Positions 17,329 to 47,439 are shown, numbered from the stretch's first letter. The stretch: DNA of 64,000 nt from a bacterium (GCA_021816845.1 JAKAWT010000001.1:70087-134086); one strand, 5' to 3'. The notes: generated by a model not told the origin, from the letters alone. Program-made: numbers and translations.

Positions 17329-17345
17329 TTTCTATCAAAAGTATA

Positions 17346-17430: not shown

Positions 17431-17446
17431 CGACCTCTCCATAATG

Positions 17447-18040: not shown

Positions 18041-18083
18041 TTACTATAATGATATATAAATTAATTTTGGATATACAGAAACA

Positions 18084-20614: not shown

Positions 20615-20616
20615 AT

Positions 20617-25897: not shown

Positions 25898-26470
25898 ATG
25901 AATACAATTGATGTATCGAAGCGATCGCCTAAATGGCTATTGTTTATATTAGCTTCTCTTATTATCCCCCCAATAATTTTTGCTAAACCAATAAATTACA
26001 ATCAAATAAAGAACAATTCAGAAAACCATGTCATGAAGAATAGTTTTCATAGCAAGGCTGTAACACTAACTACATTAACAACAAGAATCAAACCTGCAGA
26101 AAAAATTCAGGAATCTATAGTAGGAGTTAAAGAAGCAGTGTTTGCAACTTACACACCTTCTGTAGTAACACCTCCATCTAATACATATTTATCTGGAGAG
26201 AGTGTTTATTTACCTACAATTAATGCTGCAGCATCAAAATATGGTTTAAATCCAGAATTATTAATCAGCATCATTTCTTGCGAAAGTGGATTTAATCCTA
26301 GAGCATATAACCCTTCTGGAGCATCTGGTATAGCACAATTTATGCCTTCAACCTTTTATGGAAGTTGGAATATATATAGTGGAGGTGGGTTATGGAATCC
26401 TACGTCACAAATATACGCTATGGCACTAAAAATTTCTCAAGGAGGATTAACTGCTTGGGTATGCAGATAA
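25898..26470 (+). CDS. secreted lytic transglycosylase (SLT domain) protein
   Basis: Signal peptide, then LLISIISCESGFNPRAYNPSGASGIAQFMPSTF. This contains the catalytic ES motif and the GxxQ(F/L)M box of family-1 lytic transglycosylases. Confidence 0.65.
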   Translation: MNTIDVSKRSPKWLLFILASLIIPPIIFAKPINYNQIKNNSENHVMKNSFHSKAVTLTTLTTRIKPAEKIQESIVGVKEAVFATYTPSVVTPPSNTYLSGESVYLPTINAAASKYGLNPELLISIISCESGFNPRAYNPSGASGIAQFMPSTFYGSWNIYSGGGLWNPTSQIYAMALKISQGGLTAWVCR

Positions 26471-29716: not shown

Positions 29717-30490
<774 letters not shown>

Positions 30491-30506: not shown

Positions 30507-30767
30507 CTAGGTAAAATTCACAAATACTTTAGCTTGATTATTTGTAAAGACCAAAATACCATTATCAATAGTAATAAATTTTTCCTCTTTGGATCCTTTT
30601 TCGAGGTATTTAATCTTACCTGATAATAATATAGATACAAAATTTATATGATTTTTAAGTATGTCAAAATCTCCAATTTGACTTTTTGCAGAGAAATGAG
30701 AGACCTCTCCATCAAATAATCCTCCTTTCAAAGATAATATTTTTAGGGTAAAATATTCTTTATCCAT
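30507..30767 (-). CDS. atpC: F0F1 ATP synthase subunit epsilon (N-terminal beta-sandwich only)
   Basis: 86 aa, in the last position of the atp operon, with an epsilon-like beta-sandwich pattern. No C-terminal helical hairpin. Confidence 0.65.
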   Translation of the reverse strand: MDKEYFTLKILSLKGGLFDGEVSHFSAKSQIGDFDILKNHINFVSILLSGKIKYLEKGSKEEKFITIDNGILVFTNNQAKVFVNFT

Positions 30768-30770
30768 AGT

Positions 30771-32988
<2,218 letters not shown>

Positions 32989-32992
<4 letters not shown>

Positions 32993-34389
32993 GATAGTAA
33001 AAATTTCATTAATTCTTGATTTTCAACATCTTCTTCTTTGAAATCAGATATATTTCTCAATTTCTTAATATTCCTTTTCATTTTATATACATCTTCTACT
33101 TTTATATCCATATAATGTGAGAGTACAACTGTAATTAATACTTTCTGTTCAAATAAAGTATATGATTCTCCAATATCTTGGTTAAATAGAATATTAATTT
33201 TTTCACCTCTATCCAAATCTGCAAGTACTGATGATGGCATATTAACTCCAAAATGAGAAAATTTATACGCTTGATCATATTTAATTAAGGCCATATTTAG
33301 TTTTTCTGATATAGATTGCATAAATATCTCCTGCACTCTTTTACCTATTCTAGATACTGAGATTCCAGTATTGATTGCTGGCCTTATTCCTTTTAAATAT
33401 AACTCCCTATCAAAAAAAAGTTGCCCATCTGTTATAGATATGACATTAGTAGGAATATATCCAGTGAAATCATTGTTCTGAACTGATATTATGGGAAGGG
33501 CAGTCAAAGATCCCTCGTTATTTTTCACCCTACCAGCTCTCTCAAGAAGTCTAGAGTGAAGAGAGAAAACATCAGCAGGATAAGAATCTTTACCTGGAAA
33601 AACACCCTCTATCAAGGATATTTCCCTATATGATTTAGCATGCTCTGTAAGATCATCATATACTATTATGACATCCTTTCCCATACTCCATAAAGCCTCT
33701 CCAATGGAACATCCTGCAAATGGAGCAAGATAGGACTCAACAGGAAGCAATTCTGCTTTAGCAACTAAAACAACAGAAAATTCCAGCGTTCCACTATCCT
33801 CAAGTGATGTGATAATGCTAGAGACTTGATCATTTGTCTTACCTATTAGTACATAAACAATAAGTGATTTATCTTTTTGGTTACGGATAAGATCAATAAG
33901 GAAAGTTGTCTTTCCAGTCTTATTATCTCCAAGGATAACTTCTCTTTGACCAAAAGCTAATGGGAATAATGTGTCTACAACAAGATTACCTGTTTCTATT
34001 TGTTTTTTTATATCATCCCTTTGTATTATTGATGGCGCATCCCTAAAAATATCCAATTCTTTTGTATCTAATATTTTTCCTTTCCCATCTAGAGGCTCTC
34101 CAAAAACATTTATTACTCTACCTAAAGTATTCAAACCAAAAGACACAGTAAGAGTATCTTGTAGAACTAAGGCCATTTGTCCGGGGATAATACCTCTATC
34201 TTCAATGAGTACAATCTTTGATATATCATCATTAATCTCATTAACAAATCCACGCGAATTAGATTCAAATAATATTTGGCTTCCAGTTTTTAAATTTCTA
34301 AAACCTCTAACCTCACAAAATATTGAGTTAACAGCAATAACTTCACCAACTGCAACCCCATTTTTTAAGTTCTCTTTAAAACTAATCAT
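32989..34389 (-). CDS. atpA: F0F1 ATP synthase subunit alpha
   Basis: Walker A (GDNKTGKTT) and alpha-type N-terminal beta-barrel. Confidence 0.9.
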
Positions 34390-34987
34390 TGGCTTTTATT
34401 TTTATATTGAAATCCTTTGATTCTAAATCATTTTGTATATCTTGATTTTTAGATACTACATCTCCCAATTTTGAATTTGTTGGATTGTGATCTATAGGAG
34501 CTATAATATCAATGATCTTATCAAGATTTTGGTTCAGTACATTAGAGTATGAGAAATCAAAATATGAGAAAGATGTTTTTAATACTACTCCTCCTCCTAT
34601 AGAATGATCTATCTTGTATGCAATGATAACATTCCCTTTAATTTTTTCTCTGAAGAAATTATATAATTTATCTTTGAAATCATCTGTAGCCTCTAAAGAT
34701 AATATTACATATATTTTTTTAGTATTCTTTTTAAAATCTAATAGAGCTGATTGTAATCGTTTTAGTTCTTCTATATCATCTGTTACTTTTCCATCTGTAC
34801 TGATCCCATAAGTATTAGAAAGCAAACTTAAAAGTGAAGTATTAATAACAAAATCACCCTCAAAATTGACATCTACTCTTCTTTGTATATCTCTAAATTC
34901 TATAAATTTTATATACAGATTCAAAGACCTAATACAAATATTAAGATATTCTATATCTCTAATTTTTGAAGCTAAATTATAATCCAT
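34382..34987 (-). CDS. atpH: F0F1 ATP synthase subunit delta (OSCP-like) with a C-terminal extension
   Basis: VIIAYKIDHSIGGGVVLKTSFSYFDFSYSNVLNQ resembles the delta C-domain. Operon position fits. Confidence 0.55.
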   Translation of the reverse strand: MDYNLASKIRDIEYLNICIRSLNLYIKFIEFRDIQRRVDVNFEGDFVINTSLLSLLSNTYGISTDGKVTDDIEELKRLQSALLDFKKNTKKIYVILSLEATDDFKDKLYNFFREKIKGNVIIAYKIDHSIGGGVVLKTSFSYFDFSYSNVLNQNLDKIIDIIAPIDHNPTNSKLGDVVSKNQDIQNDLESKDFNIKIKAND

Positions 34988-35837
34988 ACCTTATTTCATC
35001 TATATGTTTTTCTAAGATATCAAAAATATAATCTTCTTGATCTTCTAAAGATACAGTGATATTCAAAACTTCTTTTATAACATTAACTATTACTAAAGCT
35101 GAGTCCTTTCTTATTGAATTAATAAAGTCTTCCCTAAGCTTCTTTGCATCTTCATTTAATTGATCAGAAAAAACACTTACTTTTTCTTTTTCTTGGTTTG
35201 CAACATCATCTAGTATCTTGGTAGTTTTAGATCCAATCTCTTGGAGATAATTATTATATATTTCCATATTCATTTTGGAAAATGAATCTATGCTTTGATT
35301 AATCTTATTCAAAACTTCCTCTATAGTTTTTGAAATTTCCGCTTGAGATCCTGAAAGCATTGTCTGATAAGCACTTTCAAAACTTTGCACTTGTGCTTCT
35401 AGATTTCTATTTATATCCTGTAACCCTGAGACAAGAACATTGGAAGAATCAGACATAGCTGACTCTTGGGTGGAAAGATTCTTTTCTATCTCAGCAATTT
35501 TTTTGTTATATATATCTGTGAGCTTATTTTTAAAATCTTCTTCTATTTTTTTATACAGTTCTTGTATAACAAACGATTCATTGTTAACTTCATTAATAAT
35601 ATCTGTAGTCTTGTTCTCTACTTCACCAACAATTTTATTTACATCTTTATTGTCTATATTTGCAGATTTTAGTATAACCTTTGAATCTAAACCTTTAGTG
35701 TCAATTGAATTTTTATTAACCCCAGCATCAAGATGTCCAGCATCAGGATGCCCAGATTTAGAACGCATCAGGTAGAAAACGAGTAACAAAAACAATAATA
35801 TAAGTAAAACTATTACAATTATAACAATCAGTAACAT
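34977..35837 (-). CDS. atpF: ATP synthase subunit b-like protein (N-terminal TM plus long coiled coil). Unusually long at 286 aa.
   Basis: Single N-terminal TM helix (LLIVIIVIVLLILLFLLLVFYL) and an E/K/Q-rich helical body. First gene of the atp block. Identity inferred mainly from position. Confidence 0.45.
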   Translation of the reverse strand: MLLIVIIVIVLLILLFLLLVFYLMRSKSGHPDAGHLDAGVNKNSIDTKGLDSKVILKSANIDNKDVNKIVGEVENKTTDIINEVNNESFVIQELYKKIEEDFKNKLTDIYNKKIAEIEKNLSTQESAMSDSSNVLVSGLQDINRNLEAQVQSFESAYQTMLSGSQAEISKTIEEVLNKINQSIDSFSKMNMEIYNNYLQEIGSKTTKILDDVANQEKEKVSVFSDQLNEDAKKLREDFINSIRKDSALVIVNVIKEVLNITVSLEDQEDYIFDILEKHIDEIRYGL

Positions 35838-35950: not shown

Positions 35951-36772
35951 ATGGATGTTAAAATTTTTTATAAATCATTACTTCTTCTGTTTTTATCATC
36001 ATTATTCCTATTTGTCCCTATTAGAGATATAAATGCAAATAGCATTGGTAACATAGCACAAAACTATATTGCTTTAACTCACGGAATGCAAACTGGAGAA
36101 ATAGTATCATTAATATCAAAAAATACTTTTGCAGGAGTATATCCATCAGCAAAACCCAATGACCCTAATGTTTTTGGGGTAATTGATTTTAATAGTACTG
36201 TAATTACAGGAATAACAGCTCCTAATAGAATCCCTATTATTCAATCAGGAACAATTAATGTATACGTATCAAACTTAAATGGAAATATCCAAAAAGGTGA
36301 TCTTATAACTTCATCAATAGTTCCTGGAGTAGGAGAAAAAAATACAAATACAGGAATGGTAATAGGTGTAGCTAATGCATCTTTTTTGAAGAGTAATATA
36401 ATAAAAACAGAAACTATAAATGTGAAAGGTAAAAATGTCAAAATAAGTATAGAAAAAATTCCAGTACTATTAAGTTTTCAAGAATATTATGATAACAATG
36501 CCCTACAAAGCCAATTTAATGGATTTCTTCCAAATTTTATAAAAAAAGGAGTTTCTTTTGTAAATATCATCATAGCTATAATTATAGTATTGATGGGTTT
36601 TATAATTTTTCTAATTGGAACTTTATCATCATTAAGACAGCTTATGGGTGCTATGATAAGAAATCCTACATCAAAAAGATTAGCAATAAATAGTGCGATA
36701 ATAGTCATTTTTATATTACTTTTAATTTTCATCCTTACAATAGCTATGGGTTATGCATTCTTAGTAATATAA
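35951..36772 (+). CDS. family C protein: secreted domain plus C-terminal 2-TM hairpin (RNP loop). Paralog of 29738..30490. First gene of the surface-protein cluster.
   Basis: Signal peptide with cleavage-like site (ANS), conserved GNIQKGD/IPGVGEK blocks, and C-terminal LRQLMGAMIRNPTSKRLAINSAIIVIFILLLIFILTIAMGYAFLVI. Confidence 0.55.
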   Translation: MDVKIFYKSLLLLFLSSLFLFVPIRDINANSIGNIAQNYIALTHGMQTGEIVSLISKNTFAGVYPSAKPNDPNVFGVIDFNSTVITGITAPNRIPIIQSGTINVYVSNLNGNIQKGDLITSSIVPGVGEKNTNTGMVIGVANASFLKSNIIKTETINVKGKNVKISIEKIPVLLSFQEYYDNNALQSQFNGFLPNFIKKGVSFVNIIIAIIIVLMGFIIFLIGTLSSLRQLMGAMIRNPTSKRLAINSAIIVIFILLLIFILTIAMGYAFLVI

Positions 36773-36831
36773 ATTAAAGTCTTATTGACAAATACTGGCA
36801 ATTATTATAAATTGATATAAATTAATATAAG

Positions 36832-37950
36832 ATGAATAAAAATATGAAAATAATGAAAAGAATGGCGTTAAGGATAACAAATATATTCTTAATATTATCT
36901 TTATCGTTATATGCTTTTTCAGCATTACCTTTCTTAGCTAATACAGATGCAGCATCTTTGACTCCATTAACTGATGTTATGTCTAATTCTGGAGGATATG
37001 GGACAGGTGGCCCTCAAACAGTTTCAACTGCGAATGTATCTCACTCTTTTTCGTATACAACCCCAACTGCATATACAACCTCAAGTACTATTGATATATA
37101 TATACAAACAGCATCATCAATAGGTGGAGGTGAAGCAGCTACTGCTTTCTCTTCTGTAGCTGCAACTACCTCTACTGTAACAGTAAATGGTACTGCTGCA
37201 ACTGCAGTGACTCTAACAAATGGGGTATCAGATTCTAATTTTGCTGGATACACATTTACTGAAGTTGCAATTACTGTACCTGTAGCTATATCATCTGGTG
37301 CAACTGTTACAATAAATGGTATTACTGCAACTAACCCTTCTACTGCTTCATCATCAACAAATCAGTATGTTATTGATATCCAAGACTCAAATGGTAATGA
37401 CGGATATATGGCTGTACCTATAGTCACTAATGCATCAGTTGCCGTAACAGGAAGAGTTACCCCTTCTATAAATTTTAGCCTATCATCAAATACAACATCA
37501 TTTGGGGTAATGCAACTTGGAGTAGTTAACACATCGTCACCTGCAACAACATTGACCGTTTCAACAAATGCTCAATCTGGTGCAGTTGTATATGTATATG
37601 ATCATGGTAATGGAACATCTGGAGGTTTATATAACTCTATAGCAAATCATCTTATCCCATCATCTAGTACAACTTTAGCTGGAGGAACTGAAGGATATGG
37701 TATTAATGCTGCAACTACTTCAACCAGTGGTACTGGAGGAGTTATAGGTACAATGTCTGTATCATCACCATATAATGGGACAGGAGATGCAGTTGGAGCT
37801 TTAGCTTTATCATCTACAACTCTAGCCACTGGTACAGCTCCCATGTACGGAGTTACTATACAAGTAAACTATCTTGCAGCTATCAGCGTCACTACCCCTG
37901 CTGGTATATACAATGATGATGTAACCTACGTAGCTACTGGAAAATTCTAA
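36832..37950 (+). CDS. family A secreted S/T/A-rich protein. Conserved N-terminus SLTPLTDVMSN and C-terminal module ...VNYLAAISVTTPAGIYNDDVTYVATGKF.
   Basis: Signal peptide (…LANTDA^AS). The C-terminal ~130 aa align with 39931..40890 and 45562..47439 (TGRVTPSINFSLSSNTTSFGV..., TEGYGINA..., SPYNGTGDAVGAL). Confidence 0.6.
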   Translation: MNKNMKIMKRMALRITNIFLILSLSLYAFSALPFLANTDAASLTPLTDVMSNSGGYGTGGPQTVSTANVSHSFSYTTPTAYTTSSTIDIYIQTASSIGGGEAATAFSSVAATTSTVTVNGTAATAVTLTNGVSDSNFAGYTFTEVAITVPVAISSGATVTINGITATNPSTASSSTNQYVIDIQDSNGNDGYMAVPIVTNASVAVTGRVTPSINFSLSSNTTSFGVMQLGVVNTSSPATTLTVSTNAQSGAVVYVYDHGNGTSGGLYNSIANHLIPSSSTTLAGGTEGYGINAATTSTSGTGGVIGTMSVSSPYNGTGDAVGALALSSTTLATGTAPMYGVTIQVNYLAAISVTTPAGIYNDDVTYVATGKF

Positions 37951-37975
37951 AATATAGATAGTATTTGGGTAATTA

Positions 37976-38977
37976 ATGAAAAATTTTATAGTCTCTAAAA
38001 AAACATATATTGTTTTTGTAACAGTTTTAATAATATTATTACTCTCCCCTATTAATTCTTTTGCACAGCAACCAAACAGCACATCTACATTTTCTGGTGC
38101 TTTAAACTCCTCAACAAAATCTCATGAAGGAGCTACAACAAGTGGTATTACAGTATCACCTCTTCTAACGACAATATTTCTGAATAAAACAGAGAACTCT
38201 ACCCAATATATAACTTTATTTAATAACAACTCAACCCCAATAACTGTCAGTTTAGCATTCTCCAATTTTATATCAAAAAACCAATTTGGAGCACCTGAAT
38301 TTTTAGGTTTTTCAAAAGGACAAATACAGGATACAAATTTATTAATACAATCTCCTACTTCTATAACGCTTCCACCTTTAAAAACAATAAAAGTACCGTT
38401 AACAATTCTCACAAATAATAATACTCAACCAGGAGAATACTTCATTGGAGCTTTTGCTGTCATTAAAGGAAATACTATTAGATCAGCACCGGTATCTATA
38501 GCTACAAATTCTGCTATAGGATCATTATTTTTAATTAGAATTAATGGAAAAGTTTCTGAGACAGGATATATACAATCTTTTTCTGCAACAAAAAGTTTGT
38601 TTACTGGTGGGGCTGTAAACTTTCAGGCAATATTTAAAGACACAGGGAACGTAGACCTTATACCTCAAGGAGTAATTGATATATATAATATGTTTGGGAA
38701 GAGAGTAGCAAGTATTACATTTAACCAAAATAGAGCTATAGTCCTACCTGTTGGTGTGAATAGTAGAATATATAATTCTTCATGGAATCCTGAATCTTTG
38801 GCTTTTGGAGAATTCACAGCAAAATTATTTTTAACATATGGAACAACTACAGTAACAACCATATATCAATCTACAAATTTTTGGATAATACCTTTATGGC
38901 TTGAAATACTTGCAATAATAATAGTTATACTTATAGTTACATGGATAGTAAGGTTACGCTTAAAATTAAGGACATAA
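37976..38977 (+). CDS. family B protein: secreted ~270-aa domain, C-terminal TM anchor and basic tail (…WIVRLRLKLRT)
   Basis: Signal peptide (…NSFA^QQ). Shares LIRINGKVSETGYIQSFSATK with ITINGKIISSGYIQNFGATK in 44642..45568, and a similar architecture with 42390..43304. Confidence 0.6.
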   Translation: MKNFIVSKKTYIVFVTVLIILLLSPINSFAQQPNSTSTFSGALNSSTKSHEGATTSGITVSPLLTTIFLNKTENSTQYITLFNNNSTPITVSLAFSNFISKNQFGAPEFLGFSKGQIQDTNLLIQSPTSITLPPLKTIKVPLTILTNNNTQPGEYFIGAFAVIKGNTIRSAPVSIATNSAIGSLFLIRINGKVSETGYIQSFSATKSLFTGGAVNFQAIFKDTGNVDLIPQGVIDIYNMFGKRVASITFNQNRAIVLPVGVNSRIYNSSWNPESLAFGEFTAKLFLTYGTTTVTTIYQSTNFWIIPLWLEILAIIIVILIVTWIVRLRLKLRT

Positions 38978-39882
38978 TACCTAGACACCTAGTGTCTGAA
39001 CACATTATCTTAACAAATAAAAGTTTAAGTAACTTAATTAGTTATATTGTATCTTTAGTATTTTTATTCATATCTTTGTTTATCTTGATAATAAACATTT
39101 CTTCCTCAGTGTATGCCCAGAATTTTTCACAACCATTTACCCAAAGTGCAGGTAAACAAACTGTAAATATTCACGCTTATGCCCCACTACTAGATAACTG
39201 GGCATATATAATATCCAGTCAGGGGAAAATATATATTAGACAAGAAAATACGATATATATGAATGAAAAGATTCCTGTATATGTACAAACATTTGGAACA
39301 AATAAAACACCACTCCGTGATCAAACAATTTTTCTGTCATCACCTGATACGAAATATGGTCTACATATAATCGAGCCTAAAATCCCAACAAATGTTAAAG
39401 GATTAACAATCGGCTATATAACATCAACATACAATCAACCTATTATGTACACAATCATAGCAACTGACACGACATATGCAGAAGCCCCAGTAGTATTTAA
39501 AAACATGCTTCAAGTACAATACTATCCATCAAGAAACTATAAGCCTCCATTCTTTACAAATATTCTTAATTCCTTAGGAAATTTATTCTCATCAACAACA
39601 AATATCTTAGATATATTTAGTATTGTCATTGCAATTATCACATTTTTAATAGTGGAAAGAAAATTGCTAATATCAAAAATATCTATAACAATACAAAATC
39701 AATATAGAGTTTTATTTGGTATGCTAAGGATCTTAGTGATACCATATATTATATCAATTTTTGCGTTATACAACCAACACTCATTAATTAATTATATATC
39801 TATTGCACTCCTTGTACTGGTTAGTGTACATTTTATATTAGTATATATAAAAAATCTGAAGGAAGCAGTCTCTAAATCTTAG
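38941..39882 (+). CDS. membrane protein: N-terminal anchor, ~170-aa extracytoplasmic domain and a C-terminal 3-TM domain. Start uncertain.
   Basis: Overlaps the previous gene by 37 nt, so the real start may be further downstream. Hydrophobic C-terminal segments: IFSIVIAIITFLIV, VLFGMLRILVIPYIISIFALY, ISIALLVLVSVHFILVYI. Confidence 0.45.
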   Translation: MDSKVTLKIKDIIPRHLVSEHIILTNKSLSNLISYIVSLVFLFISLFILIINISSSVYAQNFSQPFTQSAGKQTVNIHAYAPLLDNWAYIISSQGKIYIRQENTIYMNEKIPVYVQTFGTNKTPLRDQTIFLSSPDTKYGLHIIEPKIPTNVKGLTIGYITSTYNQPIMYTIIATDTTYAEAPVVFKNMLQVQYYPSRNYKPPFFTNILNSLGNLFSSTTNILDIFSIVIAIITFLIVERKLLISKISITIQNQYRVLFGMLRILVIPYIISIFALYNQHSLINYISIALLVLVSVHFILVYIKNLKEAVSKS

Positions 39883-39930
39883 GATACAGATTTTAGAGAT
39901 TGTATTGCTTGATAATATAAAGATATAAAT

Positions 39931-40890
39931 ATGAACACTTTAACTAAGGATAACCTTAACAAAATTAAAAAAAGTGTGTTAGTTTTGGTACTTATATTAT
40001 TAGTATTGTCTACAGGTATTTTATATTCTGTAAATGCAGCAACACTGACTCCAATATCAGATACTATGTCAAACCAAACAGTATCAGTGTCATCAGCAAA
40101 TAATTTCTCATTTGATGCAGTATCTGGTATTCCAGCTTCAGGAACAGTGACCATAACATTTCCATCAGGGTTTACTTCTGTAGCAGTGACTTCAGCAACA
40201 TCATCTATGTCAGGTGCAACATTTTCAGTTACTGGTAATGTTGTAACAGTAACAAACGGTACTACTGCTGTAACAGCCGGAACTACAGTAACGATATCTA
40301 ATATAACAGCCATAAATCCTAGTACAGCATCATCTACATCTACTCAATATATTATTACAATATCTGATTCAGGAGGTGACAACGCATCAATTGCTGTTGC
40401 CATAGTAACAAGCTCTCAAGTAACTATATCTGCAACAGTAAATCCTACAATAACTTTTTCAATCTCGTCCAATAGTATAAGTTTTGGTGTGTTAACTGCA
40501 ACCACAGTTTCATCTCAAACTAATACATTAACACTTTCAACTAATGCTTCTAAAGGGGCTAATATCACAGTCTATGACCTTAATGCTGGACTATTACAAA
40601 ATGTCTCATCTGGACACTTAATTGCATCTTCTACAGCAACCCTATCTGCAGGAACAGAAGGGTATGGTATTAATGGATCTGGGGCGGGAGGATTAACAGT
40701 TGTATCTCCGTATAATGGCACAGGTGATGCGGTTGGAGCATTGGTAAAGACAGCGCAAAATTTAGCATCCATATCTGTACCAGTATCAGGAGGGACAGTA
40801 ACTGTAAATTATTTGGCTGCAATATCTGCCGTAACCCCAGCAGGAACATATGCTGATACAATAACATATATAGCTACAGGGAATTTTTAG
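39931..40890 (+). CDS. family A secreted protein (N-terminus ATLTPISDTMSNQ, C-terminus ...VNYLAAISAVTPAGTYADTITYIATGNF)
   Basis: Signal peptide (…SVNA^AT). Shares a ~270-nt near-identical DNA segment with 45562..47439. The C-terminal module is conserved with 36832..37950. Confidence 0.6.
   Translation: MNTLTKDNLNKIKKSVLVLVLILLVLSTGILYSVNAATLTPISDTMSNQTVSVSSANNFSFDAVSGIPASGTVTITFPSGFTSVAVTSATSSMSGATFSVTGNVVTVTNGTTAVTAGTTVTISNITAINPSTASSTSTQYIITISDSGGDNASIAVAIVTSSQVTISATVNPTITFSISSNSISFGVLTATTVSSQTNTLTLSTNASKGANITVYDLNAGLLQNVSSGHLIASSTATLSAGTEGYGINGSGAGGLTVVSPYNGTGDAVGALVKTAQNLASISVPVSGGTVTVNYLAAISAVTPAGTYADTITYIATGNF
40069..40330. repeat. ~270-bp near-identical direct repeat, copy 1 (inside 39931..40890)
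   Basis: Sequence starting ATCAGATACTATGTCAAACCAAACAGTATCAG and running to ...ACTACAGTAACGATATCTAATATAACAGC is ~95% identical to 45675..45945. Confidence 0.8.
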
Positions 40891-40964
40891 AAATTTACTT
40901 TATAAGAATCATCTAGATATATTTAATATTAAACTCTATTCTGCTATTATTTATATATTAAAGT

Positions 40965-42386
40965 ATGAAAAAATATATATTCCTCTTTATATTTTGTTTT
41001 ATAATATTATTTGTACCAAAGATACTGGTGCCTGAAACCGTTCTTGCCCAAAATTATGTATCTACAGACTATATTTTATCAGATCCAGTTTTTGGAGAAT
41101 CAGGTCCTTATGTATCATCTCCATCATTTAAAGAGAGAAGTGCTCTTGGACAAACAGCTACAGGTATATCACAAAGTACCAATTTTATTTTAAAATCAGG
41201 ATTTGAATATTATTCTGGACAATCTGTTCCATCAATTACAATGTCACTAAATACCAATTTGATTAACTTCAATACTGTAGCTCCAAATACAATAGTCAAA
41301 TCTCCAACAAATTCAATCATTACAATATCATCCAATGCAGAATCTGGATATAACCTTTATATAGAGCAAAATAATAATCTTACAAACCAACAAGGGGATA
41401 CTATACCTCAAGTTTCAAATGGAGCAACTACAACTACTGCAGCACCATGGACATCGGCATCATATTATGGTTTAGGATATAACTGTTCTTCAGCGAATAC
41501 GTATGAACAAGCAGTTCTTGTAAATTCTCCAATTGGATTCTGGTCACTAGGAGAAACAACAGGTACTACAGCATACGATTTATCTGGAAACGGGAACAAT
41601 GGAACATATACAGGAGGATATACTCAAGGAGCCCCTGGCCCTATATCTAATTCTAATTTGGGAAATTCTACACTATTTAATGGATCTAATTCATATGTAT
41701 CACTCCCAAATGTAATACAACCATATACAATAATTACTATATCCTTATGGTTTAAAACAACATCTGATGGAATAATATTAGGATATCAAAATGCTACGGT
41801 AGGATCGGCTCAAAATGATTATGTACCAATTATATACATAGGAACTGATGGTAAATTAAGAGCTGAATTATGGAATGGTTTAGTTGATCCTATAACTACA
41901 ACTAATACTGTCAATGATGGTAGATGGCATAATATTACTCTGGTTGCAAACTCCACTACTCAAAGTTTATATTTTGACAATTCTCTTGTAGGTACATTAT
42001 CTGGAACAATAACTAATTTAACTATGACTTATAATCAGTTAGGTACTGGGTACGGATCAAGTTGGCCATCAACAAATGGATCATGGTTTTACTTTAAAGG
42101 AGGTATCTCTAACGTATCTATATATACATCTGCCTTATCATCTTCTCAAATACAAACCCTTTTTAATGATGGTATAAATTCTACTCAAGCGTTTTGTTCT
42201 CCCGATTTTATAAATACAAATTATTATAGACAACTATCATCTACAACAAATACTGAATTTGCATCATATTCCTCTATAGCAACAAACCAAACAATAACTG
42301 TTGGTTATGCAGTTAATGTATCAAACATTCAAGCATCAGGAATATATACAAACAATATTATATATACATTAACAGGAAATTACTAA
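40965..42386 (+). CDS. secreted protein with a LamG/concanavalin-A-like lectin domain and a family-A-like C-terminal end (…IIYTLTGNY)
   Basis: YDLSGNGNNGTYTGG...GAPGPI...LFNGSNSYVSLPN...ITISLWFKT...DGRWHNITLV is the LamG_3/ConA-like jelly-roll pattern. The C-terminal ...ASGIYTNNIIYTLTGNY is like the family A ends. Confidence 0.6.
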   Translation: MKKYIFLFIFCFIILFVPKILVPETVLAQNYVSTDYILSDPVFGESGPYVSSPSFKERSALGQTATGISQSTNFILKSGFEYYSGQSVPSITMSLNTNLINFNTVAPNTIVKSPTNSIITISSNAESGYNLYIEQNNNLTNQQGDTIPQVSNGATTTTAAPWTSASYYGLGYNCSSANTYEQAVLVNSPIGFWSLGETTGTTAYDLSGNGNNGTYTGGYTQGAPGPISNSNLGNSTLFNGSNSYVSLPNVIQPYTIITISLWFKTTSDGIILGYQNATVGSAQNDYVPIIYIGTDGKLRAELWNGLVDPITTTNTVNDGRWHNITLVANSTTQSLYFDNSLVGTLSGTITNLTMTYNQLGTGYGSSWPSTNGSWFYFKGGISNVSIYTSALSSSQIQTLFNDGINSTQAFCSPDFINTNYYRQLSSTTNTEFASYSSIATNQTITVGYAVNVSNIQASGIYTNNIIYTLTGNY

Positions 42387-42389
42387 ATT

Positions 42390-43304
42390 ATGCAATTAAT
42401 CAAAAAATTTATAATTTCAATTATAGTATTATCGTTTCCTCTTGTATCCTCAATAAATACCTTCGCAATCTCGCCACAGGAAAGTATAAGAGTTACCCCT
42501 GCTTATATATCTCTAACTGAAAAATCCGGATCAAGTGCGTATGAGAATCTATCAATATTCAATAATTCCAACACTACTTTAAATCTTAATATATATACAC
42601 GAGGTATACAGTATGATCATAAAAAATTGATACTTATAAATTCTATATTACAATCTAATATTGAAAATTGGATTTCTATAAAAACTACAAAAATAAGTGT
42701 ACAACCACATAAAACACAGAATGTGCCAGTATATATTAATGTACCAAAAAATGAGAAATATGGTTCATACAATGGTGGAATAGTTATTTCAAATATACCA
42801 CAATCAAAAGTAGGAAATTCTACAATATTCGGAAGAATAATTGTGAACGTTTTTGTGAATATAAGAGGAAAAAATAAAGGATACTCAAATATAAATATAT
42901 CAAATTTAAATCACCCTTCTTTAGTATTTCAAAATTCAGCAATATTAAATTTAGAAACTTATAATCCTGGCCCGTATAATAATGCATATAAAACTAATAT
43001 TTACACATCATCAATATTCGGTTTATCAAATACTAATATTGGTAGAATAGGATTAGAAAATATACTTGTAGGGCAAAAAAGATACAATACTGTAGATTTA
43101 AAAAATTTAAAAATAGGTATAAATTATGTACAGATACAGCTTTCAAATATAGGTAATAATACTAAATCAAATGTGAATTTTACTATTTTCTATATACCAT
43201 TCTATACGATATATATTCTAATACTTATATTAATAGTAATATTTATGTACCATCTATATAGATTAAGAAAAATACAAAGAAAATTAAAAAACCGTAAGCA
43301 ATAA
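42390..43304 (+). CDS. family B protein: secreted domain, C-terminal TM anchor and basic tail (…YRLRKIQRKLKNRKQ)
   Basis: Signal peptide (…NTFA^IS) and the same architecture as 37976..38977 and 44642..45568. Confidence 0.55.
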   Translation: MQLIKKFIISIIVLSFPLVSSINTFAISPQESIRVTPAYISLTEKSGSSAYENLSIFNNSNTTLNLNIYTRGIQYDHKKLILINSILQSNIENWISIKTTKISVQPHKTQNVPVYINVPKNEKYGSYNGGIVISNIPQSKVGNSTIFGRIIVNVFVNIRGKNKGYSNINISNLNHPSLVFQNSAILNLETYNPGPYNNAYKTNIYTSSIFGLSNTNIGRIGLENILVGQKRYNTVDLKNLKIGINYVQIQLSNIGNNTKSNVNFTIFYIPFYTIYILILILIVIFMYHLYRLRKIQRKLKNRKQ

Positions 43305-43494
43305 TCATTATTAAATTCTGTAATAGTTGATTGATTAAAATTTCATGGTAAAAAATACTAAATATACCATTTTTTTTAAATCTCAACTTCCACTATATAT
43401 GTTTTAGCTATTTTGAATTTTTTCATATAACTATTATTACATTAAACAACCTAGTTACTAAATACTAATATATCTATGTATTTAGATTTTATCG

Positions 43495-44496
43495 CTATTT
43501 AAAAATGTATATACCATCTTTAATATCATATGACTTACCACATTTTTGACATACTAATTTTTTAGAATATAAATTCTTAAGATCTCCATGACATATTGGG
43601 CAGCACAAACTATCTTTAAAAATATCTTTAATATCTTTTGCTTTATCTAAAAAATTATTTTTTAAATTATCATCTTTTAAAAGATATAAAAATATGCTTG
43701 GACCAAAATATGTTTTAGAAAATATAATTCCAAATTTATTATCCAAAGATATTAATATGTTCGTATTAAATAGTTTTTTGAAATATTTTTGTCTGAAATT
43801 TGATGCTGAAAAAACTTTCTTAACTATTAAGTGATTTTTTACTAGAGTTTTAATAATATATGAAGGTGAAAAATTTAAGAATATTTGATCATTTAAAAAT
43901 CCTTGAGAATCATTTTTATGCGGAATGGAATAAATATCTTGTTTTCTAAAATCTTTATCTTTAAAATGTCTCATTCTTGATAACATATGATCCTTATTTG
44001 CAAATTCCAAAATAAAACTATTTGATATCACTCTTGATATTTCACTTATTGCAAGATCAGGATTTTCTATATGATGTAAAACCCTAACTAACATGCCTGA
44101 GGAGATTGATCCATCTTTAAATGGCATGTTATATATGTCCCCACAAACTTTAAAAACATTTGAATCTAGATTATTTTTACCTTCTGCTTTTTTTAGATTA
44201 GAAAATGAGTAATCAAAAAGTATTGAATATGAATATTTATTCTGGTATAGATCAGTGAGCCTACCATACCCTCCACCTATATCTATAAATGACCTCGAGT
44301 TGTTGGGTTTAGACTTAAATAGATTATTATCCTTTAATAATTTAGATAGTATATTCCTTTCAGATTGGTTTTCATATTCCCTATCTTTCCAATATTTCCT
44401 ATAATCATATTCTAAATTTGAATCATAATCTTGGACTCGTATTTTTGTATTCAAACTTTTTTTATTAATACTTCTAGTATTGGTCATAGGGTTCAT
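43495..44496 (-). CDS. class I SAM-dependent methyltransferase fused to a C-terminal Trm112-like zinc-ribbon domain
   Basis: Motif I (FIDIGGGYGRLTDL) and motif post-I/II (VCGDIYNMPFKDGSISSGMLVRVLHH). C-terminal CCPICHGDLK...CQKCGKSYDIKDGIYIF is a Trm112/DUF343-like zinc ribbon. Confidence 0.65.
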   Translation of the reverse strand: MNPMTNTRSINKKSLNTKIRVQDYDSNLEYDYRKYWKDREYENQSERNILSKLLKDNNLFKSKPNNSRSFIDIGGGYGRLTDLYQNKYSYSILFDYSFSNLKKAEGKNNLDSNVFKVCGDIYNMPFKDGSISSGMLVRVLHHIENPDLAISEISRVISNSFILEFANKDHMLSRMRHFKDKDFRKQDIYSIPHKNDSQGFLNDQIFLNFSPSYIIKTLVKNHLIVKKVFSASNFRQKYFKKLFNTNILISLDNKFGIIFSKTYFGPSIFLYLLKDDNLKNNFLDKAKDIKDIFKDSLCCPICHGDLKNLYSKKLVCQKCGKSYDIKDGIYIFK

Positions 44497-44641
44497 TTTA
44501 CATTAAAAGTATAATATTTTGTAGTCCCTATAAATATTATACTTTTATTATGTTAAACTATATAAAATAGACTTGGATCCAGATCCAATGGATCAGAACT
44601 ATTGGATCAAGATCCTCTAATCTAATCAAGTCTAGACTATT

Positions 44642-45568
44642 ATGAAAAATTTTATAAAATTAACTTTATTATTACTGCCAATACTAACAATATTTTTCGC
44701 TAGTAATATATACGCTAAAATTATTCCTGACAAAGGAATCACTCTATCACCTGTAATATCTAAGATAACATTAAATAAGGGAGAAACTTATAATGGTAAA
44801 CTATATATAACATATAATAATAACTCAAAAGTTAATGCAAATATTTTAGTTTATGCATTTAGACAATCAGGTGACACTGCACATCCGAAATTCTCAAACA
44901 AAATAAATAAACTTTCTGAATCAATTCATTGGATTAAGATTCAAAAAAATGTAACTTTGTATCCACATAAATCCATTGCAATTAACTATACAATAAATGT
45001 GGCAAATAATGCATCTCCAGGTGGACATTTCTTATCAATAATAGTATCAATAACTAAATCAGGGAATGAAAAGATTGTCGAATCTGTAGGATCTCTACTT
45101 ATTATTACTATAAATGGAAAAATTATATCTTCTGGATATATACAAAATTTTGGAGCTACAAAAAAAATATTTTTAGAAAATCCAATAAATTTATATCTAG
45201 ACTTTGCAAATACTGGGAATATACAACTATCACCATTTGGGTATATTACAATTTCAAATATATTTGGAAATACAATAAAAGTAATAGAAATAAATAAAAA
45301 TCAATCTTTAGATTTACCAAAAAGTACGAGATTGTATACTACTAATTTTAATTTGAAAAATTTTATTAATCAGTTTGGGATATACCAGGCAACTTTGAAT
45401 CTTACATATGGATACCCAGGGCATTTCGTAAATACTCAAAGTTCTAGTACATTCTATTATTTTAATTATTTATACCTAATTATATTACTTCTTATCATAA
45501 TTGTTATCATACTTTATATAATTAAAAGAAAACATAATAAAAAATTATTGTTTTTTAAAAAATGGTAA
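44642..45568 (+). CDS. family B protein: secreted domain, C-terminal TM anchor and basic tail (…IKRKHNKKLLFFKKW)
   Basis: Signal peptide (…NIYA^KI). Conserved block with 37976..38977. The stop overlaps the start region of the next family-A gene. Confidence 0.6.
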   Translation: MKNFIKLTLLLLPILTIFFASNIYAKIIPDKGITLSPVISKITLNKGETYNGKLYITYNNNSKVNANILVYAFRQSGDTAHPKFSNKINKLSESIHWIKIQKNVTLYPHKSIAINYTINVANNASPGGHFLSIIVSITKSGNEKIVESVGSLLIITINGKIISSGYIQNFGATKKIFLENPINLYLDFANTGNIQLSPFGYITISNIFGNTIKVIEINKNQSLDLPKSTRLYTTNFNLKNFINQFGIYQATLNLTYGYPGHFVNTQSSSTFYYFNYLYLIILLLIIIVIILYIIKRKHNKKLLFFKKW

Positions 45569-47439
45569 AAAAATATTCAATAAAATTTGTTACAGTATTA
45601 AGTATATTCGGATTATTTTTCTTATCAATATATCCAATATTTACTAGTGTACAAGCCGCTTTAATAACACCTTTATCAGATACTATGTCAAACCAAACAG
45701 TATCAGGATCATCAGCAAATAATTTCTCTTTTGATGCAGTATCTGGTATTCCAGCTTCAGGAACAGTGACCATAACATTTCCATCAGGGTTTACTTCTGT
45801 ATCAGTGACTTCAGCAACATCATCTATGTCAGGTGCAACATTTTCAGTTACTGGTAATGTTATAACAGTGACAAATGGTACCACTGCTATAACAGCTGGA
45901 ACTACAGTAACCATATCTAATATAACAGCTACAAACCCATCTATTGCCTCATCATCGACAACACAATATATAATAACAATATCTACATCAGGTGGTGATC
46001 AGGCATCAGTTGGAGTAGTAATAGTAGCATCGTCAACCTATGGATCTGGACCTTCAGGAGATATATATCAACAAGCTATAACCATAAATAGTACAAATAC
46101 AAGTACACTAACTAACTATCAGGTGGAAGTAACATTAAATACTCAAACACTCATATCTGCAGGTCAAATGCAGGCAGATTGTGCAGATATTAGGTTTACA
46201 GATTCTTCTGGGAATCTTCTTCCTTATTGGATTGAATCAGGCTGTGATACAACCTCAACTCAAATATGGATTAAAATTAATACTATAGCAGCATCAACAA
46301 ATACAACAATTTTTTTATATTATGGATCATTAAACGCAGCACCGGAGAGTAATGGACATACTACATTCAATTACTTTGACCAAGGAAGTCAAATCAATAA
46401 TTGGATAACTTCTGGATCATCTGGGCAGAATACAGCTACAGGAGATCCAGCTCCTTCATATTATGCAAACTCTTCAAACGGTGATTATATGTATAAAAAC
46501 ATAAACCTTACATCAAATGAATTACTAACCTTTGATGCTAATACAAATGCATTAGGAGATTTTTATTTTCTTACAAACTCCTCTGGGGCTGGGCAGATGT
46601 ATAGGACAGGTATAAGTTCTGGATGGTTCGGTTTTGCCACAACTAATTCTTGGACATCTTGGACTGCACCTACAGGTACATCTCCAATAAGTGCAAATAC
46701 TTGGAATAAATACCAAATTGCGATTACTTCTCCAACCTCTGCAACATTGTATTATAAACTAACATCAGGAGATTCTCCATTAATAAATGGTACATTACTT
46801 GGAACATATACAATTTCTAATAATGGAGGATATATAGGACTTGTAGGGGACGCAGCAGGATCAAGTAATATTACCTACTGGGATAATATTATTGTTAGAC
46901 AGTACTCTTCCCCAGAACCAACAACAACAGTATCTACAACAGTCACTAATCTGACAAATAACCAGCTACAACTTGAAGTAGGTGTTAATCCTTTTATTAC
47001 ATTCCAGGTTAGTTCTAATTCACTAAACATAGGAACTCTATCACCAACTTTGGTATCATCAGCTACAAATTCATTAACATTATCATCTAATGCTTCCAAT
47101 GGAAGCAATGTATCTGTAATGGATGCTAATGCTGGATTATATAATTCTGCTGATAGTCATAAAATAATATCTACAACCACAACTCTTCAAGCTGGAGTAG
47201 AAGGATATGGAATAAATGCATCTACTACATATTCAGGTTTAAATATAGAATACCCATATAATGGTACTGGAGATAGTATTGGTGGGCTATCCCAAACTGC
47301 ATCATCAACATTATGTTCTTCTACAACAACTGTAAATGCAGCAAATATTGTTATAAATTATCTTGCATCGATTTCAAATATAACCCCATCAGGTCCATAT
47401 CAAGATCAAGTCATTTTCATAGCTACAGGCAATTTCTAA
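45562..47439 (+). CDS. family A secreted protein with an inserted DUF2341/LamG-like module (625 aa)
   Basis: N-terminus ALITPLSDTMSNQ... and C-terminus ...VINYLASISNITPSGPYQDQVIFIATGNF. The central segment ...CADIRFTDSSGNLLPYWIESG...TQIWIKIN...TIFLYYG... matches the DUF2341 hallmark. More jelly-roll-like sequence follows. Confidence 0.6.
   Translation: MVKKYSIKFVTVLSIFGLFFLSIYPIFTSVQAALITPLSDTMSNQTVSGSSANNFSFDAVSGIPASGTVTITFPSGFTSVSVTSATSSMSGATFSVTGNVITVTNGTTAITAGTTVTISNITATNPSIASSSTTQYIITISTSGGDQASVGVVIVASSTYGSGPSGDIYQQAITINSTNTSTLTNYQVEVTLNTQTLISAGQMQADCADIRFTDSSGNLLPYWIESGCDTTSTQIWIKINTIAASTNTTIFLYYGSLNAAPESNGHTTFNYFDQGSQINNWITSGSSGQNTATGDPAPSYYANSSNGDYMYKNINLTSNELLTFDANTNALGDFYFLTNSSGAGQMYRTGISSGWFGFATTNSWTSWTAPTGTSPISANTWNKYQIAITSPTSATLYYKLTSGDSPLINGTLLGTYTISNNGGYIGLVGDAAGSSNITYWDNIIVRQYSSPEPTTTVSTTVTNLTNNQLQLEVGVNPFITFQVSSNSLNIGTLSPTLVSSATNSLTLSSNASNGSNVSVMDANAGLYNSADSHKIISTTTTLQAGVEGYGINASTTYSGLNIEYPYNGTGDSIGGLSQTASSTLCSSTTTVNAANIVINYLASISNITPSGPYQDQVIFIATGNF
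45675..45945. repeat. ~270-bp near-identical direct repeat, copy 2 (inside 45562..47439)
   Basis: ~95% identical at the DNA level to 40069..40330. Also explains the look-alike antisense ORFs 39879..40313 and 45555..45914. Confidence 0.8.

Follow-up and report, generated by a model that had tools for sequence, protein, structure and literature searches.

The closest described relative of the locus examined here is the "Pam" pilus, which a 2026 preprint (bioRxiv 10.64898/2026.03.03.709456) first described in ultrasmall (CPR) bacteria as a surface fibre built by strand exchange. In Candidatus Mycosynbacter amalyticus the system consists of the pilins PamA, PamB and PamE, the chaperones PamC and PamD, the tip protein PamT and the anchor PamR, and the pilins have been seen as filaments by cryo-EM (bioRxiv 10.64898/2026.03.03.709456). 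More distant comparisons are provided by the chaperone-usher pili (classical Pap/Fim, alternative CFA/I and archaic Csu), by the WxL/Csc clusters of Firmicutes, which encode a small and a large WxL protein together with a WxLIP of the architecture DUF916-DUF3324-TM (PMC10599100, PMC9772566; PDB 9i1y, 9i25), and by chaperone-free donor-strand fibres such as TasA, archaeal threads, bundling pili and cannulae, which, unlike this locus, are made without dedicated chaperone genes.

The cluster analysed here lies in a window of 64,000 nucleotides (the whole stretch of DNA that was analysed) and is, with a high degree of probability, a pam-type pilus operon of a Patescibacteria (CPR) bacterium. Its products are probably the pilus subunits, a lectin-bearing tip protein and the membrane-anchored chaperones of a Pam pilus. 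The locus is judged to be a real but divergent member of this very recently described system. An ORF check of the window confirmed the coordinates of all ORFs, and the three paralogous families of the original prediction, here called A, B and C, were recovered at the positions it gave. Its assignment of all ten genes to these extracytoplasmic families fails for two of them: 43495-44496(-), a methyltransferase gene, and 38941-39882, whose product (X) forms a family separate from A, B and C. The core logic that had been proposed, a donor-strand-exchange fibre with subunits paired with membrane-tethered chaperones, is that of the published model for the homologous Pam pili; the system can no longer be called undescribed, because the 2026 preprint and the NCBIfam models NF058581 and NF058579 cover it. 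The pairing extends to related genomes: among 33 related loci across Patescibacteria, 31 have a family-A gene beside a family-B gene. What was obtained here is homology to the Pam pilins and PamT, predicted folds, conserved synteny and membrane topology.

The family-A genes and the segments of their products that matter for what follows are:
36832..37950, plus strand: A1, Pam-type pilin, 372 aa (NF058581 CPR_Pam_pilin_C E 1.5e-7; family HMM E 1.8e-81)
39931..40890, plus strand: A2, Pam-type pilin and minimal family member, 319 aa (NF058581 E 1.8e-10)
40411-40449, plus strand: donor-like linker core of A2 (linker aa 157-173)
40450-40887, plus strand: C-terminal domain (CTD) of A2 (aa 174-319)
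45562..47439, plus strand: A3, large Pam-type pilin, 625 aa (NF058581 E 5e-10; DUF2341 E 1.3e-21)
46177-46404, plus strand: DUF2341 domain of A3 (Pfam E 1.3e-21)
46957-46995, plus strand: linker of A3, NNQLQLEVGVNPF
47011-47436, plus strand: CTD of A3

Comparison with the Pam system was made through the NCBIfam models and the published description. The three pilins match the whole of NF058581 (model positions 3-148 of 148 in A1) at 31.6-41.1 bits, below the curated cutoff of 55. As all window proteins fall below the NCBIfam cutoffs, membership rests on the E-values and on a transitive link. NF058581 is matched by 25 of 74 family-A homologs, the best of them, P0031, at 117 bits, and A2 is 35% identical to P0031 over 99% of its length. 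The P0031 contig carries a family-B gene (HMM E 2e-87) immediately after P0031 and, ahead of it, a gene for a lectin-containing protein whose C-terminal domain is that of family A.

Within the alignment of A1, A2 and A3, identity to the reference A1 is 42-50%, with A2 at the upper value of 50%. The N-terminal domains (NTDs) of A2 and A3 are nearly identical, and the two genes share a 300-nt repeat at 90% identity; antisense ORFs within the family-A genes reflect this shared sequence. In A3 the DUF2341 domain is followed by a lectin-like insert of ~180 aa. The AF2 model of A2 (pLDDT 93) has a nine-strand NTD (aa 42-156), a coil linker (aa 157-173) and a beta CTD (aa 174-319) that is Ig-like in the model; this is the layout of the Pam pilins, which likewise have two domains, a nine-strand NTD, a linker and a CTD with a truncated Ig fold. 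PamA and PamB carry two and three disulfide pairs, whereas A1 and A2 contain no cysteine. The conserved mature N-terminus that had been noted (AASLTPLTDVMSN / AATLTPISDTMSN / AALITPLSDTMSN) was confirmed, and orthologs retain it, although the regular expression given for it was slightly off, and the blocks of the C-terminal module (GTEGYGIN, PYNGTGD, NYLAAIS...ATGNF) are conserved across the 74 homologs. The description of these proteins as full of N-x-S/T sequons did not survive a shuffle test, in which the fraction at or above the observed value was 0.17-0.47 for family A; sequon richness is a composition effect.

The fourth subunit, T, was recognised through its C-terminal relation to family A, which was borne out, both having the C-terminal module's first and last strands:
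40965..42386, plus strand: T, PamT-like tip subunit with lectin module, 473 aa (NF058579 CPR_pilus_PamT E 2e-10; Laminin_G_3 E 3e-17)
41052-41204, plus strand: N-terminal SxxY hairpin region of T
41232, plus strand: start of the first CTD strands of T
41679-42155, plus strand: LamG domain of T, inserted into the CTD (Laminin_G_3 E 3e-17)

T matches NF058579 over aa 10-152 with 40.5 bits against a cutoff of 240, and only the N-terminal 60% of the model is covered because the LamG domain is inserted. It is also matched by an HMM built only from the small pilins of distant CPR loci (E 1.4e-8), hhalign placing aa 90-134 on the small-pilin CTD, and its C-terminal strand ends in ...YTLTGNY. No VTxSATV-type donor linker was found ahead of the T domain. 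With its LamG lectin domain and its lack of a donor linker, T is proposed to be the distal tip adhesin. The Pam system has an acceptor-only tip subunit, for which T is the candidate counterpart, and shares with the locus the lack of an usher, the several pilin paralogs per operon, the adjacent ATP synthase operon (in the neighbourhood analysis of the preprint; here atpF-H-A-G-D-C lies beside the cluster) and the restriction to CPR. The locus departs from Pam in that its tip protein has a LamG domain inserted in an Ig domain, one of its pilins carries a lectin-like insert besides DUF2341, it encodes three chaperone paralogs where Pam has two, and the family C proteins are additional conserved neighbours.

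The chaperone candidates are the family-B proteins:
37976..38977, plus strand: B1, membrane-anchored PapD-like / WxLIP-like chaperone, 333 aa
38465-38512, plus strand: disordered hairpin loop of B1 (aa 164-178)
38894-38971, plus strand: C-terminal TM helix of B1, then basic tail
42390..43304, plus strand: B2, second chaperone paralog, 304 aa (family HMM E 1.7e-47)
44642..45568, plus strand: B3, third chaperone paralog, 308 aa (family HMM E 5.8e-81; WxLIP HMM E 6.7e-5)

B2 starts 3 nt downstream of T, and the last 7 nt of B3 lie within the start of A3. Identity to B1 is 22% for B2 and 34% for B3, and the family HMM recovers all three with E-values of 1e-47 to 1e-83. Topology prediction agreed with the proposed layout, with a signal peptide, one C-terminal TM helix and a K/R tail in 3/3. 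In the AF2 model of B1 (pLDDT 88) two beta-sandwich domains, aa 53-189 and aa 197-304, precede the TM helix. Family B has a PapD/CfaA-like two-domain fold with a TM anchor, and resembles PamC and PamD, which are PapD/FimC-like chaperones with a C-terminal TM helix. No significant sequence similarity of family B to PapD-family chaperones was found.

The two-domain PapD-like fold is common to family B and the chaperone-usher pili, family B being tethered by its TM helix. Chaperone-usher pili also share with family A a conserved C-terminal strand whose last residue is aromatic and, as is predicted for family A, an incomplete Ig-like domain and a donor strand with alternating hydrophobic residues. 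The family-A linker weakly resembles the C-terminal ...ITVTASVDPVID of PDB chain 2hb0 (CFA/I fimbrial subunit E), a segment that we take to be the CfaB donor strand fused to CfaE, and weak Pfam matches to SCPU (Csu-type pilin) occur in 4 of 24 small CPR pilins. However, there is no significant sequence similarity between the two systems, and the locus has an extra N-terminal domain that would give a linear, uncoiled fibre. CPR bacteria are monoderm, and the locus, unlike chaperone-usher pili, has neither an usher nor an outer membrane; Pfam and NCBIfam scans of all cluster proteins found no usher-like gene among the ten. The suggested relation to TasA/camelysin failed, with no Pfam Peptidase_M73/TasA match in any locus protein or in the 74 family-A homologs.

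In chaperone-usher pili the donor strand is an N-terminal extension, whereas in this locus it is most likely the inter-domain linker (..VTISATVNPT.., unstructured) and not the mature N-terminus. Conservation within family A peaks in the C-terminal strand (2.93 bits) and in this linker (2.86 bits), as it does in the Pam pilins (bioRxiv 10.64898/2026.03.03.709456). The original prediction had the processed N-terminus (A-A-x-L-T-P-x-S-D-T-M-S-N) donated, as in classical chaperone-usher pilins, and this we regard as highly improbable. It is true that this block immediately follows the signal-peptidase site and is retained in orthologs, with a related block, AATLTN.YIRLNRM, in the wider family, but at 2.27 bits it is less conserved than the linker, and in the AF2 monomer of A2 it is the strand (aa 42-46) with which the N-terminal sandwich begins, with pLDDT block means of 96-98 over aa 41-60. 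The small single-domain pilins of distant CPR loci carry a donor-like strand, VTVSATV, at their mature N-terminus; this strand, however, aligns with the linker of the two-domain pilins and not with their N-terminus. In the cryo-EM structures of PamA and PamB it is again the linker, not the N-terminus, that occupies the groove of the neighbouring subunit (bioRxiv 10.64898/2026.03.03.709456).

The remaining genes in and around the cluster are:
38941..39882, plus strand: X, candidate pilus terminator / membrane anchor, 313 aa
39151-39201, plus strand: N-terminal strand-like motif of X, GKQTVNIHAYAPLLDNW
35951..36772, plus strand: C1, family C, 273 aa; its place directly upstream of A1 is conserved
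29738..30490, plus strand: C2, family C paralog, 250 aa, convergent with atpC (BLASTP E 3e-16 to C1)
30507..35837, minus strand: ATP synthase genes atpF-H-A-G-D-C (ORFs; synteny in related loci L003 and L004)
43495..44496, minus strand: SAM-dependent methyltransferase with Trm112p-like zinc ribbon (Methyltransf_11 E 3e-13; Trm112p E 1e-5)

X has a signal/anchor, a mature N-terminal strand-like motif, a domain of ~150 aa and three C-terminal TM segments, and in close relatives it always follows B1. Its motif, SVTV(G/E)GY(T/V)PLL.NW, is similar to the pilin linker and is retained in 4 orthologs. X matches no Pfam or NCBIfam model. PamR is RbmA-like, with a strand at its N-terminus and a TM helix at its C-terminus, whereas X has three TM segments, and no similarity of X to the RbmA-like PamR or to RbmA/FnIII was detected; X is proposed by analogy as a candidate functional counterpart of PamR. 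C1 has a signal peptide, then a beta ectodomain (~165 aa) and, at the C-terminus, a hairpin of two TM segments whose R-N-P loop is invariant in 8 sequences; the proposed paralogy of C1 with C2 is upheld at 33% identity. The ectodomain of one homolog matches Pfam XM1_gp53_minor_capsid at 29.7 bits. The hairpin weakly resembles the F-type ATPase c subunit, C2 is adjacent to atpC in L003 and L004 too, and atpB and atpE are absent from the 64,000-nt window, in which a c subunit was looked for and not found. A weaker reading is that family C may be a membrane module derived from the ATP-synthase c subunit, coupling or anchoring the pilus beside an atp operon without atpB/atpE. The methyltransferase, whose orthologs adjoin B2 orthologs in L003-L005, is cytoplasmic and probably outside the pilus system, though a conserved neighbour.

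By homology with Pam pili, or by analogy, we infer polymerisation, the donated strand, the order of the subunits and the role of X as follows. All products would be exported by Sec and then cleaved after an A-x-A site. A1, A2 and A3 are each predicted to have a beta-sandwich of nine strands at the N-terminus, then an extended linker in which small or hydrophobic residues alternate (V.I.A.V-N-P), and at the C-terminus an incomplete Ig-like domain. B1, B2 and B3 would hold each newly exported subunit by placing a strand of the long hairpin loop into the open CTD groove, and this chaperone strand would then be swapped for the linker of the next subunit, so that a linear fibre grows from the membrane without an usher. 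T would form the distal adhesive tip, A3 with its DUF2341 and lectin-like inserts could be an adhesive shaft subunit, and X, with its donor-like N-terminal strand and three TM segments, is a candidate terminator and anchor.

The resemblance to Csc/WxL complexes that had been remarked on proves to be true homology for family B, but no WxL-domain match was found for family A. On profile comparison, family B and Firmicute WxLIP are clearly homologous over their full length: hhalign of 7 Firmicute WxLIPs against the family-B profile gives probabilities of 99.2-99.7% over about 272-314 columns, and an HMM of the same number of Firmicute WxLIP sequences matches B2 directly (E 1.9e-7). PF06030 is matched by 61 of 88 family-B homologs, the window proteins themselves staying below the Pfam gathering score (for B2 against Pfam WxLIP_PGBD, E 2.3e-4). 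On the subunit side, A1, A2 and A3 have no W-x-L, in agreement with the original prediction, no Pfam WxL match occurs among 74 family-A and 24 small-pilin homologs, and hhalign of WxL against the family-A CTD or the small pilins is not significant (probability 0.6-12.7%). WxL/Csc clusters include a small LPXTG-anchored protein (CscD), with sortase dependence implied, whereas neither the cluster proteins nor the window's long ORFs showed an LPxTG motif, and no sortase was found in the window.

WxL complexes have been described as peptidoglycan-bound platforms rather than fibres, and in the published AF2 prediction a WxLIP hairpin strand fills a gap in the beta-sandwich of its partner (PMC10599100, PMC9772566). 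The locus could likewise encode non-filamentous adhesin complexes of the WxL/WxLIP type, in which each family-B protein is the permanent anchor of one A or T protein, held by strand complementation without polymerisation. We consider this unlikely. Published models do give WxLIP the role of a scaffold that stabilises WxL proteins, the pairing of family-B genes with family-A or T genes is close to 1:1, a ratio of three chaperones to four subunits would also be compatible with stable holder complexes, and distant CPR loci share with WxL clusters a common grammar of large subunit, small subunit and WxLIP-like gene. Against this, family A lacks significant similarity to WxL domains, the homologous pilins of M. 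amalyticus form visible filaments, the best-conserved part of family A is an exposed linker with a donor-like alternating pattern, and it is specifically T that lacks this linker, which is sensible only for a polar polymer.

A Pam-type fibre remains the preferred reading, and its relation to the Firmicute clusters may be an old one. We suggest, tentatively and as a possibility that is rather less than even, that CPR Pam pili and Firmicute WxL/Csc clusters are two branches of one ancient chaperone-assisted strand-complementation system of monoderms. The literature on WxL domains describes an N-terminal strand joined through a long unstructured segment, and this is how a self-complemented donor strand looks in a monomer model. 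Should the subunits prove related as well, donor-strand exchange would be the predicted way in which WxL proteins polymerise, or at least are handed over, and the family-B homologs, which run into the thousands (10,260 cluster representatives), would then be the sign of a very widespread fibre system that has gone largely unrecognised.

The cluster is probably a Pam-type pilus locus, and a divergent member of that type lying below current thresholds, the Pam proteins of Ca. Mycosynbacter amalyticus being set beside it through their published description and the NCBIfam models. Cryo-EM of filaments from this CPR parasite revealed the pilins PamA and PamB, in which the C-terminal domain takes the linker of the next subunit by donor-strand exchange (bioRxiv 10.64898/2026.03.03.709456). 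The same operon encodes PamC and PamD, PapD/FimC-like chaperones with a C-terminal transmembrane (TM) helix, together with the linker-less tip PamT, a further pilin PamE and the RbmA-like membrane anchor PamR, and ATP synthase genes are its conserved neighbour (10.64898/2026.03.03.709456). The system had originally been thought possibly undescribed, but one 2026 preprint and two NCBIfam models already cover it. The window is AT-rich (~29% GC) and part of a metagenome-assembled genome, and the annotation of the cluster proteins is hypothetical only. Its features, including three ordinary housekeeping RNAs, are as follows.

4517-4884, minus strand, bacterial RNase P RNA class A (179 bits)
15960-16033, plus strand, tRNA-Gln(CTG)
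17354-17441, minus strand, tRNA-Ser(GGA)
29738-30490, plus strand, C2, family C
30507-35837, minus strand, atp operon
35951-36772, plus strand, C1, family C
36832-37950, plus strand, A1, family A (putative Pam-type pilin)
37976-38977, plus strand, B1, family B (putative membrane-anchored chaperone)
38941-39882, plus strand, X, candidate terminator and anchor
39931-40890, plus strand, A2, family A
40965-42386, plus strand, T, PamT-like putative tip
42390-43304, plus strand, B2, family B
43495-44496, minus strand, SAM methyltransferase with a Trm112p-like zinc ribbon
44642-45568, plus strand, B3, family B
45562-47439, plus strand, A3, family A

Every ORF named in the original prediction is present at its coordinates, and the three paralogous families that it proposed are borne out by pairwise identities and family HMM scores. 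A1 shares 50% identity with A2 and 42% with A3, and T has the first strands and last strand of the C-terminal domain (CTD) module in common with family A and matches an HMM made solely from distant CPR small pilins (E 1.4e-8). B1 shares 22% identity with B2 and 34% with B3, all three scoring between E 1e-47 and 1e-83 on the family-B HMM, while C1 and C2 match by BLASTP at E 3e-16 and the R-N-P loop of family C is invariant (n=8 sequences). The proposed topology also agrees with a hydropathy scan, which gives signal peptides in all ten proteins, a single C-terminal TM helix with a basic tail in each family-B member and a two-TM hairpin in family C. No extra paralogs were found elsewhere across the 64 kb. 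The grouping of ten genes into three families holds for most of them, but the methyltransferase, on the opposite strand inside the cluster, is cytoplasmic and X falls outside all three. The reported richness in N-x-S/T sequons equals the expectation from S/T/N-rich composition, as judged by shuffling, and is not an enrichment beyond it. The methyltransferase adjoins the B2 ortholog in three related loci (L003-L005), and no evidence points to an action on the pilins. A promoter and terminator scan yielded fewer sites than shuffled sequence and was uninformative on operon structure. The region a few kb upstream encodes an SLT-domain lytic transglycosylase at 25898-26470 and, on the minus strand at 26485-27234, a DUF4382 protein; the former could aid fibre passage through the cell wall, although nothing ties it to the locus.

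A Pfam scan of the family-A core returned no match, TasA, camelysin, AbpA and WxL, the identities that had been raised for it, included. In NCBIfam, by contrast, the model NF058581 (CPR_Pam_pilin_C, Pam pilus system pilin subunit) aligns in full with the last ~145 residues of each of A1, A2 and A3 (E 1.5e-7, 1.8e-10 and 5e-10, respectively), at 31.6-41.1 bits and hence below its cutoff of 55 bits. A homolog search with A2 gave 119 proteins from Patescibacteria, including Woesebacteria, the named ones being called hypothetical or DUF2341 domain-containing; among 74 aligned homologs, 25 match NF058581 and seven match PamT. The best homolog, P0031, reaches 117 bits on NF058581, well over the cutoff, and is 35% identical to A2 across 99% of the A2 length. 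On its contig, P0031 comes after a lectin-containing protein with a family-A CTD at its end and is directly followed by a family-B gene (HMM E 2e-87).

In the AlphaFold2 model of A2, built from the 74-sequence alignment (pLDDT 93), aa 42-156 contain nine strands, aa 174-319 form a beta domain, and the linker between them at aa 157-173 (AIVTSSQVTISATVNPT) is without secondary structure. Across the 74 homologs this linker and the C-terminal strand are the most conserved segments (2.86 and 2.93 bits per column), the N-terminal block (2.27) and the remaining N-terminal domain (1.93) being less so, and the same pattern, with linker and C-terminal strand highest, is found in Pam pilins (preprint 10.64898/2026.03.03.709456). 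The N-terminal block had originally been favoured as the donor strand; its conservation stands above that of the rest of its domain and below that of the linker, and we consider this variant most improbable, preferring the linker as the candidate donated strand.

Structural databases added little. Single-sequence PDB searches with A2 and B1 found no match, and the family-A and small-pilin profiles gave no significant one, the Pam structures evidently being absent from the PDB copy searched. Foldseek with the whole A2 model recovered only generic tandem-Ig proteins (integrins, MSCRAMMs) at TM-scores of ~0.25 and was uninformative. The sole fimbrial sequence match of the family-A profile, PDB 2hb0 (CFA/I fimbrial subunit E), was not significant (E 2.9); it aligns the A2 linker (aa 161-173, ..VVVTATVPPTF..) to ..ITVTASVDPVID.. 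at the C-terminal end of 2hb0, a segment that we take to be the CfaB donor strand fused to CfaE.

The second NCBIfam model, NF058579 (CPR_pilus_PamT), matches the N-terminal 150 residues of T (E 2e-10). From this PamT-like N-terminus T continues into the first CTD strands (aa 90-134), a LamG domain inserted within the CTD (aa 239-397, E 3e-17) and the conserved last strand, and no VTxSATV-type linker was found in it. This predicted architecture fits the expectation for a distal tip adhesin that only accepts a strand; T orthologs range from about 470 to 780 aa. The two core domains of A3 are separated by a DUF2341 domain and a lectin-like insert. A 300-nt direct repeat of 90% DNA identity (40029-40328 in A2, 45648-45947 in A3) encodes the N-terminal domains of the two pilins and indicates a recent duplication or gene conversion between their genes; it also accounts for the near-identical antisense ORFs at 39879-40313 and 45555-45914 (both minus strand). 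In X, the signal sequence is followed by a conserved motif, SVTV(G/E)GY(T/V)PLL.NW, that is like the pilin linker, then by a domain of ~150 aa and three TM segments, and we infer that X may take the terminating and anchoring role given to PamR in Pam.

A genome scan with an 8-sequence query and one genome per species gave 33 related loci, M. amalyticus not among them, and a family-A gene adjoins a family-B gene in 31 of them. L003 and L004 retain the full set of C1, A1, B1, X, A3, B3, T and B2 as well as the methyltransferase, sufSU, the atp operon, C2, ppa and a histidine kinase, with inversions relative to the window; L005 retains all of these apart from the atp operon and C2, which are absent. 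More distant genomes, labelled Paceibacterota, Wolfe-, Brenner-, Jorgensen- and Liptonbacteria (L011-L033), have related pilin-chaperone modules in the form of a three-gene triad, for example L011:10421-11026 and L016:10574-11164, comprising a large protein with a terminal family-A CTD, a small pilin of ~200 aa and a family-B (WxLIP-like) gene. In the small pilins VTVSATV directly follows the signal peptide and precedes a CTD with a conserved Cys pair, so that the donor-like strand is N-terminal, as in classical pilins; NF058581 is weakly matched by 14 of 24 and Pfam SCPU (Csu-type pilins) by four.

Two further loci stand apart. L028 (CAZGFX010000003.1), labelled 'uncultured Gammaproteobacteria bacterium', has a family-A-like gene and no family-B gene, and its bin is probably mislabelled or chimeric. 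In L042, from another CPR genome, a 1,884-aa protein beside a pilin-chaperone pair (12412-18066) has the family-A N-terminal block (..SSMKDTMSNQ..) at its start and numerous fn3/Pur_ac_phosph_N repeats, and the product of the next gene (18182-21212) is 2,949 aa or longer and includes a Peptidase_S74 domain, of the phage tail-fibre chaperone type. One or both may correspond to the 'tail fibre-like protein' of the preprint's neighbourhood network (10.64898/2026.03.03.709456).

For family B, a word-based search found eight homologs and an exhaustive profile search went far deeper, to 10,260 cluster representatives at E<=1e-3 and 1,207 at E<=1e-30. In the AlphaFold2 model of B1 (pLDDT 88), aa 53-189 and aa 197-304 form two beta-sandwich domains, the hairpin loop at about aa 164-178 is disordered and aa 307-332 form a TM helix, and because of this architecture family B is assigned the membrane-tethered chaperone fold of PamC/D, for which NCBIfam holds no model. 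Pfam WxLIP_PGBD (DUF916) is matched by 61 of 88 family-B homologs (best E 4e-11), and EfmWxLIP1 is the best PDB sequence match of the family-B profile (E 5e-4). WxLIP proteins, of DUF916-DUF3324-TM organization, were taken from seven Firmicute WxL clusters on plasmids; they align with the family-B profile over essentially full length at 99.2-99.7% hhalign probability (n=7), and their seven-sequence HMM directly matches B2 (E 1.9e-7) and B3 (E 6.7e-5). Judged by these comparisons, family B is clearly homologous to Firmicute WxLIP. Csc/WxL clusters combine small and large WxL proteins with WxLIP as their conserved partner, and in AF2 models the WxLIP hairpin strand fills a gap in the WxL sandwich (PMC10599100). 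WxL and DUF916 are unmentioned in the Pam preprint (10.64898/2026.03.03.709456), and no paper joining Pam chaperones with WxLIP was found in the literature collection searched.

The suggested resemblance to Csc/WxL complexes therefore survives for family B and finds no support for family A: hhalign of WxL against the family-A CTD or small CPR pilins gave 0.6-12.7% probability, which is not significant, and neither W-x-L nor LPxTG motifs were found. What remains is a motif-level likeness (first strand ..F..FG.., last strand Y..T.T[WY]), rejected as evidence of homology. Firmicute WxL clusters do have the same gene grammar as the distant CPR triads, and the locus might on that account encode non-filamentous holder complexes of WxL type; with family A showing no significant similarity to WxL domains, we regard such complexes as unlikely and favour a Pam-type fibre.

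Such a fibre would be built from subunits that leave the cell via Sec, the open CTD of each being covered by a hairpin strand from a membrane-tethered family-B protein until the linker of the next pilin replaces it, giving a linear polymer. T would occupy the tip, A3 would act as an adhesive shaft subunit, and X would close and anchor the fibre. Homology, predicted folds, topology and synteny are what the analysis itself established. Polymerization, the donated strand, subunit order and the role of X are inferred, and our confidence in such details is lower than in the identity of the locus. Relative to the Pam system of M. amalyticus, the lectin-inserted tip, cysteine-free pilins, three chaperones, different candidate anchor and family C neighbours are peculiar to this one.

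Family C has few homologs (n=15), the ectodomain of one passing Pfam XM1_gp53_minor_capsid (29.7 bits); C1 and C2 themselves received no PDB or Pfam assignment. With hand-entered c-subunit sequences, hhalign of the family C hairpin against the F-type c subunit gave 39% probability (E 3e-4; reversed control 0.2%), and the top three matches of a c-subunit HMM over all fetched DNA are family C members (E 0.009-0.11). This apparent resemblance is marginal, and the second TM helix has no conserved acidic residue. The atp operon consists of atpF-H-A-G-D-C only and has a family C gene on either side; atpB and atpE were not found in the 64-kb window, L003, L004 or any other fetched locus.

The hypothetical annotation and the scores under NCBIfam thresholds imply that Pam-type pili reach more divergent CPR lineages than current models do, and for host recognition in an episymbiotic bacterium the tip and shaft subunits with their lectin modules offer concrete candidates. 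The main wider interest of the locus lies in the homology of Pam-type chaperones with Firmicute WxLIP, which ties a CPR fibre to widespread, poorly understood surface clusters of Gram-positive adhesion and virulence and suggests a common, testable mechanism for both.
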